Origin: Escherichia coli
GTDB lineage: Bacteria; Pseudomonadota; Gammaproteobacteria; Enterobacterales; Enterobacteriaceae
NCBI RefSeq assembly: GCF_003991155.1
Contig: NZ_CP031293.1
DNA length: 64,000 bases
Direction: 5' to 3' (one strand)
Positions 7,862 to 14,219 of this stretch are shown one piece after another. The stretch's first letter is position 1, and each line of letters begins with the position of its first letter. Below the pieces are notes generated by a model. It was not told the origin of the DNA. It saw only the letters and a list, made by a program, of their open reading frames with translations, and ran no database searches. Both the position numbers and the translations under genes were made by a program.

Positions 7862-9493
7862 TTAATACTCGTCCCGTCCTTCGTCTTCATCCGGCTGTTC
7901 CAGCACACTGTAAGCCACCGAACAAAACAGCGAGTTCAGACGCTGCATATCTCCCAGTAAGCCTAAATGTAGCGAACTGGTTTCAATGCTTTGCACGTTT
8001 TGCTGATGCAGGCGATCGACGTGAGCATGGGAATAACGGCGATTAAGAATGCGAAAGCGATGCTTGCTGCGGCGCAAACGACGGGCGCTGGTAACATCGC
8101 CAGAGAAGAAAACCGACATTGCCAGTTTTAAATTACTGAGCAATTGCTCATAGAGCGCATCCAGTTCCTTCAAGCCATCAAGCGAAAATGCCCGCCGTGC
8201 TGCCAGCGATTTATCGGCAATTTCGCTCCCCATGCGCTCGACGATATCGGAGGCCTGTTCAAGGTTGAGCGACATTTCGATGATCTCCGCCCAGCGGCGC
8301 GACTCTTCCTCCGCCAGCTCTTCTTTTGGCATCCGCGCCAGATACAGCTTAATGGCGGTATAGAGAACGTTGATATCATCTGCCAGCTTACGCAGCTCTT
8401 TCTCCTGCCGTGGCTCGCCGTGCATCACTTTATTCAGCCCTTCCATCATCTGTTCCATGGCGTCGCCAATGCGCAGGGTTTCGCGCGCGGCGTTCGCCAG
8501 AGCAAGCGTGGGCGTATCCAGCGCGCTGACATCCAGATGTTTGGGTCGTAGCTGGGTATCCAGTTCCGGTTCATCGCGAATAATCGTTTTGCAAAACCGT
8601 GCCATCGGGTCAACAAATGGCAGCATGACCAGGCAGCGTACAAGGTTGTAGAAGACGTGGAAATAGATCACCAGTTCCGCTTTTGGCAGTGGCAACTTCC
8701 CCATTGTCTCTGCCAGCAAATGGACAAACGGCAGGATAATCAGGCTACCCACCAGCTTAAACAGCAGGCTACCCAGCGCGACACGGCGGGCTGCGGCATT
8801 GGCGGCACTGTTGTTGAGCATCGCCAGCAGACCGGAACCGAGGTTAGCACCAATCACCAGACAGAGCGCCACGGGGAAGGAGATAATGCCTGCGGCGGTC
8901 AGAGTCGCGGTCAGCAGTACAGCAGCAAGGCTGGAGTAGCTGATAATGGCGAACATCGCGCCAATCAGCGCATCCAGCAGAATATCGCCGGTCAGCGAGG
9001 CAAAGATCACCTGAACGCCGTTTGCCTGGGTGATCGGCGTTACGGCCTGCACAATCAACTCCAGCGCCAGCAAAATCAGCCCAAGACCAATACCGACGCG
9101 GCCCAGTTGCCCGGCGCGTGACTGTTTGCGTCCGAGGAAAAAAATCACGCCGATAAAAATAAGTAACGGTGACAGCCAGGATAAGTCGAAGGTGAGAATA
9201 CGCGCCATTAGCGCCGTCCCGACATCTGCACCCAGCACAATCACCAGAGCCGGTGCGAGGGCTACCAGATCCTGAGCGACAAACGAGGTCACCAGCATGG
9301 TGGTGGCATTACTGCTCTGCACCAGTGCGGTAACGCCTATCCCCGCGCAAAAGGCGAGCGGCTTCTTTTCGACGCTTCGGCTAAGAACAGTACGCAGACG
9401 CGCGCCGAAGACGCGCATTACGCCGGTTCGAACAATATGAGTCCCCCAGACCAGCAGGGCGACGGCAGAAAGCAGGTGAAGCAAAGTTAGCAC
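7862..9493 (-). CDS. yjbB: Na+/phosphate symporter-like inner membrane protein (PhoU-domain containing)
   Basis: 543 aa; GTG start with GGAGAA upstream; multi-TM N-terminal half plus charged PhoU-like C-terminal half. Confidence 0.85.
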   Translation of the reverse strand: MLTLLHLLSAVALLVWGTHIVRTGVMRVFGARLRTVLSRSVEKKPLAFCAGIGVTALVQSSNATTMLVTSFVAQDLVALAPALVIVLGADVGTALMARILTFDLSWLSPLLIFIGVIFFLGRKQSRAGQLGRVGIGLGLILLALELIVQAVTPITQANGVQVIFASLTGDILLDALIGAMFAIISYSSLAAVLLTATLTAAGIISFPVALCLVIGANLGSGLLAMLNNSAANAAARRVALGSLLFKLVGSLIILPFVHLLAETMGKLPLPKAELVIYFHVFYNLVRCLVMLPFVDPMARFCKTIIRDEPELDTQLRPKHLDVSALDTPTLALANAARETLRIGDAMEQMMEGLNKVMHGEPRQEKELRKLADDINVLYTAIKLYLARMPKEELAEEESRRWAEIIEMSLNLEQASDIVERMGSEIADKSLAARRAFSLDGLKELDALYEQLLSNLKLAMSVFFSGDVTSARRLRRSKHRFRILNRRYSHAHVDRLHQQNVQSIETSSLHLGLLGDMQRLNSLFCSVAYSVLEQPDEDEGRDEY

Positions 9494-9663
9494 GGAATCA
9501 GGTTCTCCTTTTTGTTATGCATTTTCCTGTTAAGATTTTTCTAATCACGTTATTTTTATCCAGGCATTTCTCTTGTATGTACTTTCAGTATAAGAGATTT
9601 ATACAAGAAAGCATTTAAAAAGGCATTTATATAAAAATCCACCTGTATCTGTTGCTATTTCTG

Positions 9664-10113
9664 TCACACTTTCCCCTGTCGTTTACACCAGATAATCGTT
9701 GTCACTTTTGTGACCTCTGAGAAGATAAACAACGAAATATTTAAGACCAGATCCTGTGAATGAAAATAATTAAGTAACAACGGTATTACGGAGATTGAAC
9801 AGCTTACGGTAGCAAAACGCATAAACTCCTGAATCGCCAAAAAAGAGAAACTAAATAATTCTTGTCTTAAAAAACATTGCGCAGAAAAGAATAAAGAGAA
9901 CAATAATACTATTTGTAGCGTAACAGTGGCGACTGCATAAGCGTAAAAACCGCCTTCAACACCGATATCCTTAAGTAAAGAAAGTGAATGAACGATATCG
10001 GAATAAAAAGGGATACGACCATTACCAAGCGAGTAGAACAAATATGTGGCTATCGCGATAACATCCATGACACCCCAAAAAAGAAGAATGTATTTTTTAT
10101 ATTGACGTTGCAT
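9664..10113 (-). CDS. Small hydrophobic membrane protein, unknown function (accessory)
   Basis: 149 aa; ATG start with AAAGGA upstream; about 4 predicted TM segments; AT-rich codon usage unlike flanking core genes. Confidence 0.4.
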   Translation of the reverse strand: MQRQYKKYILLFWGVMDVIAIATYLFYSLGNGRIPFYSDIVHSLSLLKDIGVEGGFYAYAVATVTLQIVLLFSLFFSAQCFLRQELFSFSFLAIQEFMRFATVSCSISVIPLLLNYFHSQDLVLNISLFIFSEVTKVTTIIWCKRQGKV

Positions 10114-10155
10114 AAAGTAAATCCTTTTTACGAAAACAAATATTACCAGGAATTA

Positions 10156-10476
10156 TTATAATTGCGGGCGTTTTTGGATTAACACTCCACCCGTATTTTT
10201 AAAAATCCTGTCAGCCATACCTTCACTAAACAAGACATCGATACGCCCTTTACTTTTATCGTGATACAGAATACTGCATGAGATACACCTTATACCCTCT
10301 TTGGATTTACGAAAATCTAACCAAAAACGACCATCATAAAAGACCCACTCCACACCTGTTTTTATATTAATTATCCAATCATTATAACCTGTTGGTTTTT
10401 TTCCTAATAGTTCAGTAACTTCGGACTCTGAACATCCTTCGAAAGCAAAAAAATCTATTTCATCGATTTTTATCAT
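10156..10476 (-). CDS. Small soluble protein, unknown function (accessory)
   Basis: ORF 10156-10482 opens on TTG; preferred ATG at 10476 (MIKIDEIDFF); Trp/Phe-rich; AT-rich; no strong SD. Confidence 0.35.
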   Translation of the reverse strand: MIKIDEIDFFAFEGCSESEVTELLGKKPTGYNDWIINIKTGVEWVFYDGRFWLDFRKSKEGIRCISCSILYHDKSKGRIDVLFSEGMADRIFKNTGGVLIQKRPQL

Positions 10477-10502
10477 GTTCAATAATCCATTATTTATGAC
10501 AT

Positions 10503-10530
10503 TAAAAACCGGGGCAAATACCCCGGTGTT
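10503..10530 (-). terminator. Rho-independent terminator of metH
   Basis: Minus-strand hairpin CCGGGGTATTTGCCCCGG followed by TTTTTAATG immediately after metH stop. Confidence 0.7.
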
Positions 10531-10535
10531 ATCAC

Positions 10536-14219
<3,684 letters not shown>

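Follow-up and report, generated by a model that had tools for sequence, protein, structure and literature searches.

Leaky intrinsic terminators and intercistronic hairpins are described as elements that lower the expression of the distal cistrons of operons, and the metH-yjbB interval of the Escherichia coli DNA analysed here (the window, a stretch of 64,000 nucleotides from contig NZ_CP031293.1) resembles such operons in several respects: a GC-rich hairpin stands right after the upstream coding sequence, the downstream cistrons lie on the same strand without room for a promoter, and a stronger terminator is present at the far end in related lineages. It differs from them in that the distal terminator of the window is degenerate while the proximal hairpin has a U5 run. 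The same interval has been described in strain K-12, where the spacer between the two genes displays a PhoB ChIP site, GATTCACAAATCTGTCAC (PMC3465305). The second of the two small genes that we describe below leads to a further known system, the vgrG-tle2-tli2 modules of type VI secretion (T6SS), in which Tle2 proteins are class 3 lipase effectors and Tli2 proteins are the lipoproteins conferring immunity (PMC9846239). The reading of the locus that we favour, with a probability of about one half, is that the hairpin and the two genes behind it, ORF1 and ORF2, form an ancient tail of the metH transcription unit, retained in a patchy manner and fed by leaky read-through.

The features studied are all encoded on the minus strand and are listed in Table 1. 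ORF1 and ORF2 have housekeeping genes as neighbours and are annotated as hypothetical proteins in E. coli genomes; RefSeq holds an identical 106-aa CDS in strain 2016C-3878, whose metH-yjbB segment is 100% identical to that of the window. The GC content of the segment 9500-10500 is 30-37%, when compared to about 55% in the flanks. No terminator was found between ORF2 and yjbB in the window apart from the degenerate remnant given in the table.

Table 1. Features of the metH-yjbB interval, from metH to yjbB (positions of the window)
Feature	Position	Strand	Remark
metH (methionine synthase)	10536..14219	-	TAA at 10538-10536
GC-rich hairpin ACCGGGGT ATTT GCCCCGGT, terminator-like or attenuator	10508..10527	-	8 nt past the metH stop
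U-rich tail TTTTAATGTC	10498..10507	-	only 4-5 consecutive U
Promoter-like TTGCCC-17-AATAAT, overlapping the hairpin	10489..10517	-	predicted start ~10482
Weak Shine-Dalgarno-like GGA of ORF1	10486..10488	-	9 nt before the ATG, read from the sequence
ORF1, 106 aa, soluble, no known family	10156..10476	-	ATG at 10476
A7 tract within ORF1, frameshift site	10396..10402	-	sampled E. coli alleles
Promoter-like TTAATC-16-TATAAT, spanning the ORF1 stop	10155..10182	-	predicted start ~10148
Shine-Dalgarno AAGGA of ORF2	10122..10126	-	8 nt ahead of the ATG
ORF2, 149-aa small membrane protein	9664..10113	-	intact in all loci examined
ORF2-yjbB spacer	9494..9663	-	degenerate K-12-type terminator remnant and, upstream of yjbB, conserved block CTTATACTG (9594-9586)
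yjbB (Na/Pi cotransporter family), downstream neighbour	7862..9493	-	

The hairpin, ACCGGGGU-AUUU-GCCCCGGU at 10527-10508, is formed by 8 pairs, 6 of them G-C, and folded alone it reaches -15.1 kcal/mol (z = -3.9), a stability equalled by none of 200 shuffled sequences. Thymines follow the stem directly (10507-10504) and are succeeded by AATGTC; from the last T of the run to the ATG of ORF1 there are 27 nt, and from the foot of the stem 31 nt. The hairpin with a start codon close behind it, reported in the preliminary description, is therefore real, and its distance of about 25 nt was a fair estimate. Stable, GC-rich and placed just past a stop codon, the stem-loop is of the kind seen in intrinsic terminators; the tail UUUU(U)AAUGU contains the 5 T in 8 positions that the terminator scan looks for, and it is short when compared to a U tract of about 7-9 nt. 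As an exact 20-mer, the hairpin has a single occurrence in the window where chance predicts 0.01, while the region shows no excess of the generic terminator pattern (7 found, 5.0 +/- 2.5 expected). We consider the hairpin to be non-random because it lies 8 nt from the metH stop and because it is conserved in E. fergusonii, where a single G-C pair is changed to G-U (locus L012), and in E. whittamii. The U-rich tail is not conserved in these sister lineages, reading UAUUUAAUG in E. fergusonii and UUGAGACUG in E. whittamii. Across lineages the metH-proximal hairpins range from -13.6 to -28.3 kcal/mol, and five out of six lack a proper U tract. An Rfam scan of positions 9300-10800 returned zero hits, which indicates that the hairpin does not belong to a known RNA family. 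When the whole junction (10470-10545) is folded, the minimum-energy structure lengthens the stem by pairing of the metH 3' end with sequence upstream of ORF1; this pairing takes in part of the Shine-Dalgarno-like UGG/GGA and is weak (z = -1.98).

A hairpin followed by a small gene is not peculiar to the window. In every lineage with homologues at metH-yjbB, the first small gene begins 60-95 nt past metH and behind a hairpin. The arrangement metH-hairpin-ORF1-ORF2 is identical in E. fergusonii, while E. whittamii has kept the hairpin and ORF2, with about 260 nt of unrelated sequence in the place of ORF1. The metagenome locus L013, from another enterobacterium, carries an ORF1 homologue between metH and yjbB, 85 nt past the metH stop and behind a hairpin, and no ORF2; in locus L017 the ORF1 homologue starts 93 nt past the metH stop and is followed by an ORF2 homologue of 40% identity. 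Since the flanks of L013 and L017 are about 75-88% identical to Escherichia and Citrobacter, both loci belong to other genera. At metH-yjbB, Citrobacter amalonaticus carries an ORF2 homologue and no ORF1; it starts 79 nt past the metH stop, with a hairpin of -28 kcal/mol that lacks a U tract. Finally, a further ORF1 homologue (L016) is found alone between a phage-tail-like cluster and dapA. Within the sequence that replaces ORF1 in E. whittamii, we also noted a REP-like palindromic element, GCCGGATGCGCTACGCTTATCAAGCCTA (L018 4766-4795; also L008-L010).

In Citrobacter, L017 and L013 a homologue of the K-12 spacer, including the K-12-type terminator and CTTATACTGG, is located downstream of the small genes, which is the place expected for an operon terminator. 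The K-12 spacer thus looks like a deletion, and the compared sequences are most simply read as descending from an old order metH, hairpin, ORF1, ORF2, terminator and yjbB, from which the K-12 type would have arisen by deletion and of which the AT-rich Escherichia version would carry a degenerate distal terminator. Repeated lateral replacement by homologous recombination at metH-yjbB is a conceivable alternative.

The preliminary description had named the hairpin the metH terminator and the two genes a cassette. The first name holds insofar as the hairpin is real and terminator-like, but metH of K-12-type strains is followed by another terminator. In K-12, O55:H7 and further strains, metH and yjbB are separated by a different spacer of 219 bp, which shares with the window the flanking genes, the block CTTATACTG and the ribosome-binding region of yjbB; it differs in being devoid of ORF1, ORF2 and the hairpin and in having, besides the PhoB site, a canonical metH terminator. 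The latter, CAGGGCGCUCAAUGAGUGCCCUG-UCUCUUUAUU, is stronger than the hairpin of the window (-19 kcal/mol, z = -5.5), and the two types of spacer diverge already within the last four codons of metH. ORF1 and ORF2 with the hairpin are carried by 1132 of 5426 complete E. coli genomes, always on the chromosome and with one site per genome as the median, and are missing from about 79% of E. coli. A 91-nt probe comprising the hairpin and the start of ORF1 matches an equal number of genomes (1132), and within E. coli the hairpin was found only together with ORF1/ORF2. Roughly one in five complete E. coli genomes has a metH 3' end and terminator unlike those of K-12.

The word cassette is not borne out. 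A repeat search detected no direct or inverted repeats flanking the segment, the viral contigs scanned with ORF1, a distant ORF1 homologue and ORF2 gave no match, phage records yielded none, and the matches filed under plasmids were chromosomal DNA, leaving no true plasmid copy; across Escherichia, Citrobacter and other genera, the location is always metH-yjbB in the loci examined. From these comparisons, ORF1 and ORF2 emerge as an ancient and often-lost pair of metH-yjbB rather than a recent mobile cassette, and the loss of two old genes by deletion is the best reading of the K-12 spacer. Between E. coli and E. fergusonii (L007/L012), ORF1/ORF2 have a synonymous divergence of 0.10-0.20, when compared to 0.26 for metH and 0.86 for yjbB, and this low value hints at some recent exchange of the segment between the two species. 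Movement between E. coli lineages is suggested by the sequences as well: the last 300 nt of metH in the window (10536-10835) are 97.6% identical to the cassette-less O55:H7 and 93% to the cassette-bearing B2 strain UM146, while the segment with ORF1/ORF2 matches the B2 copies at about 98% identity, which suggests a recombination breakpoint near the metH stop, with the segment spreading between lineages.

Several minor observations concern the same interval. The PhoB ChIP site of the K-12 type (L002 ~1978-1998) begins within the metH stop codon. A Pho-box-like repeat resembling it, ATGTCACGAAACTGTCAT, lies behind the ORF2 homologue of Citrobacter (L020 6478-6500), and the corresponding place of the window (~9640-9663) looks degenerate; yjbB itself is a gene of the Na/Pi cotransporter family. 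Among the plasmid records, NZ_CP134663.1 of PLSDB is a 4.9-Mb E. coli sequence with metH-ORF1-ORF2, evidently a chromosome filed as a plasmid.

It had been claimed that the gap leaves no room for a sigma70 promoter; indeed none fits between the hairpin and the ATG, but a promoter-like sequence, TTGCCC (10517-10512) and AATAAT (10494-10489) separated by 17 nt, overlaps the hairpin. It matches the sigma-70 consensus at 9 of 12 positions with the optimal spacing, and its position weight matrix (PWM) score of 9.7 places it among the two best sites of the region on the minus strand. The matrix, built from consensus frequencies, is rough, and the 128 kb of strand scanned contain 36 sites scoring at least 9. 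The only Shine-Dalgarno-like element of ORF1 is the GGA at 10488-10486, where homologues have GGAGG or AAGGA, and it would be present on the mRNA only if transcription started upstream of about 10490, that is, by read-through from metH. The other source of transcripts that had been named, a promoter embedded in the 3' end of metH, was rejected: the best site there, CTGGCT-16-TATGAT, scores only 6.6. An alternative TTG start of ORF1 at 10482 was discarded as well, being 3 nt past the GGA and not the annotated start. By comparison, ORF2 has a strong Shine-Dalgarno sequence, AAGGA, conserved in all Escherichia lineages, and the other top-scoring site of the region, TTAATC-16-TATAAT, has 35 nt from its predicted start to the ORF2 ATG. 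Owing to this strong ribosome-binding site and to a candidate promoter of its own, ORF2 may be partly independent of metH transcription. No transcript data for the metH-yjbB locus were found in the literature, including the start-site maps of uropathogenic E. coli.

In the reading that we favour, RNA polymerase coming from the metH promoter would meet the GC-rich hairpin 8 nt past the stop codon, and part of it would read through, placing ORF1 and ORF2 on the metH mRNA. With its weak GGA, ORF1 would be translated only from transcripts initiated upstream, and so at low, metH-coupled levels, while ORF2 would probably be served, besides its strong ribosome-binding site, by a further promoter, TTAATC-16-TATAAT, inside the 3' end of ORF1. 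In the allele of the window, the hairpin would have gained a U5 run and the ribosome-binding site of ORF1 would have degraded; as a consequence ORF1 would be poorly expressed and decaying, with ORF2 maintained. We infer read-through because the layout recurs between lineages, because five of the six hairpins are devoid of a proper U tract, because the gaps of Citrobacter and L013 are poor in promoter-like sites and because a canonical terminator lies beyond the small genes in the relatives. Two features of the window argue against it. Its hairpin carries five T and scores as an intrinsic terminator, so that read-through at this particular hairpin may be very low, and the near-consensus promoter-like site that overlaps it is conserved in E. 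fergusonii. Besides, a GC content of 30-37% is typical of H-NS-silenced DNA, and ORF1/ORF2 could be off whatever the promoter. The earlier proposal that expression needs terminator read-through is thus consistent with the predicted geometry of ORF1 and with the related layouts, but is weakened by the overlapping promoter-like site and by the candidate promoter of ORF2; likewise, low and metH-coupled levels would apply to ORF1, given the position of its GGA and the layouts of the relatives, but ORF2 need not be limited in this way.

The overlapping site could instead drive ORF1 and ORF2 from about 10482, nearly leaderless and independently of metH, which we regard as unlikely. Beyond its score and spacing, this explanation gains from the site being identical in E. 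fergusonii, but the sequences of the two species are too close for this conservation to mean much, and AT-rich DNA readily yields such matches. A start at ~10482, itself predicted, would leave a leader of about 6 nt with the GGA off the transcript and the AUG not 5'-terminal, unlike true leaderless mRNAs; such a transcript does not have the form of a translatable mRNA, and the site is for this reason a poor fit for productive ORF1 expression. The site is also missing in Citrobacter and L013, where the layout is alike: no promoter-like site was detected between metH and the small gene in Citrobacter (best PWM score 3.4), and the best candidate in the L013 gap scores 6.0 with a predicted start inside the ORF. 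The stand-alone ORF1 homologue of L016 has a promoter-like site scoring 11 and a 47-nt leader.

Whether the two frames behave as genes bears on a second alternative. ORF1 homologues are 37-43% identical and share conserved motifs, and pairwise dN/dS values for ORF1 are 0.12-0.48, with a value of 1.24 for a near-identical E. fergusonii pair that differs by 6 changes only; between intact alleles of E. coli and E. fergusonii, the ratio is below 0.5. For ORF2 the pairwise values are 0.28-0.40, as against 0.011 for metH and 0.024 for yjbB. Judged by these ratios, ORF1 and ORF2 are real, weakly constrained genes. Of 11 E. coli loci sampled, 5 have ORF1 frameshifted at the A7 tract (10402-10396), and among 25 evenly spaced records 12 carry the frameshifted allele of 1040 nt, from which roughly half of the carriers may have lost ORF1. 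ORF2 is intact in 13 of 13 Escherichia loci. ORF1 is predicted to be soluble, while ORF2 has at least 2 strongly hydrophobic segments and shows five helices in a low-confidence AlphaFold2 model; the models are too poor for use (pLDDT 43.7 for ORF1 and 46.8 for ORF2). A HMMER search of 1.84 billion representative proteins retrieved only three relatives of ORF1, all distant, and neither protein has a significant match in Pfam, NCBIfam, PADLOC, PHROGs or the PDB sequences.

The segment might accordingly be an unexpressed relic in E. coli, with an efficient terminator, a silenced AT-rich segment and ORF1 (perhaps also ORF2) as a functionless remnant, in which case the nearness of ORF1 to the terminator would be functionally meaningless. 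The frameshifted alleles, the weak Shine-Dalgarno sequence of ORF1, a selection that is relaxed when compared to the neighbouring genes, the low GC content and the large share of E. coli without the segment are all in line with such decay. However, ORF2 is intact throughout, with a dN/dS of 0.28-0.40 and its Shine-Dalgarno sequence conserved, and the dN/dS of the intact ORF1 alleles of E. coli and E. fergusonii stays below 0.5; we consider a relic to be improbable.

A self-contained toxin/immunity or toxin-antitoxin module kept at low, metH-coupled expression, along the lines that the preliminary description had suggested, is very unlikely: a pair of small genes in one direction, with one product soluble and the other in the membrane, and an ORF2 family that adjoins T6SS lipase effectors elsewhere, the sole tie to interbacterial warfare, would suit it, but the genes are separable (ORF1 without ORF2 in L013 and L016, ORF2 without ORF1 in E. 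whittamii and Citrobacter), many strains have lost ORF1 by frameshift while ORF2 is not lost, the database searches revealed no toxin, antitoxin, defence or immunity family, and no ORF1 homologue occurs in any T6SS locus. What might survive of this proposal, and is itself doubtful, is ORF2 alone as an orphan relative of a membrane protein of T6SS modules.

The link between ORF2 and T6SS stems from a profile search, which adds proteins of Pseudomonas, Burkholderia and other bacteria to the ORF2 family (profile E = 1e-23 to 1e-51). The homology is full-length and includes the motifs LFWG.MD and G(R/N)IPFYSD; with the protein of P. frederiksbergensis, ORF2 shares 33% identity over 138 aa (BLASTP E = 2e-15). 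In five loci, three of them from as many Pseudomonas species (L019, L023 and L024) together with L034 and L035, a homologue of about 140-160 aa is encoded directly after vgrG (DUF2345) and directly before a Lipase_3 effector, a class 3 lipase of about 650-700 aa; one of these homologues has a 4-nt overlap with vgrG. Behind the lipase come one to four paralogues of about 236-282 aa, among them at least one lipoprotein, and usually a PAAR gene. The Burkholderia homologue (L025) again follows vgrG, and its contig stops right after it. ORF2 is therefore homologous to the small membrane protein of vgrG-tle2-tli2 modules. In P. aeruginosa PAK the Tle2/Tli2 module has a DUF4123 adaptor in the place of this protein (PMC9846239). 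In the window the homologue stands outside the T6SS context, between ORF1 and yjbB instead of vgrG and a lipase, and there is no vgrG, lipase, Tli2 or PAAR gene nearby. A T6SS role for ORF1 was considered and rejected, zero ORF1 homologues being present in any T6SS locus. We found no description of a role for the vgrG- and lipase-linked small membrane protein in the searchable papers, and by its genomic context the relative of ORF2 appears to be a membrane protein hitherto undescribed, with a conserved place between vgrG and the gene of the Tle2 lipase.

We tentatively propose, as a possibility that we rate rather low, that the ORF2 family is an unrecognised component of VgrG-Tle2 modules, located in the inner membrane and neutralising or loading the lipase, and that the metH-trailing copies are orphans. 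In L036 and L037, the ORF2 homologue and a Tli2-like lipoprotein gene are intact while the lipase gene between them is frameshifted, with its last ~150 codons left. This pattern, together with ORF2 standing alone in enteric bacteria, is like that of orphan immunity genes; it differs from them in resting on a single example and in that the canonical immunity protein of Tle2 is a lipoprotein, not a membrane protein. If the proposal is correct, the ORF2 copies of B2-type E. coli, E. fergusonii, E. whittamii and Citrobacter would be kept against lipase attack by neighbours, and such protection would be tied to metH transcription. Through its relation to the vgrG-linked membrane protein, ORF2 provides a testable lead on immunity to T6SS lipases or on their loading, as well as on protection by orphan genes in extraintestinal lineages of E. 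coli. The hairpin, the weak ribosome-binding site and the distal genes in turn offer a simple natural system in which read-through can be set against an overlapping promoter. To a specialist, the arrangement is ordinary operon anatomy and unsurprising, and its background, a polymorphic and ancient tail of metH, is of modest interest.

Two further observations were made on distant members of the family. In L036 (6445-7700) and L037, the intact ORF2 homologue is located downstream of a vgrG-Tle1-DUF2931x2 cluster, and the Lipase_3 remnant behind it is 5'-truncated and covers only residues ~496-647. Lastly, the Klebsiella pneumoniae record NZ_OP378648.1, a 316-kb 'plasmid' with the chromosomal core genes fur, fldA, seqA, pgm and kdp, contains an ORF2-like gene of 145 aa (L038 5989-6426; 23.7% identity, E = 8e-5), whose annotation as 'arginine:ornithine antiporter' looks like a misnomer; it lies on the strand of pgm, 55 nt behind that gene, so that once more a small membrane-protein gene trails a housekeeping gene.
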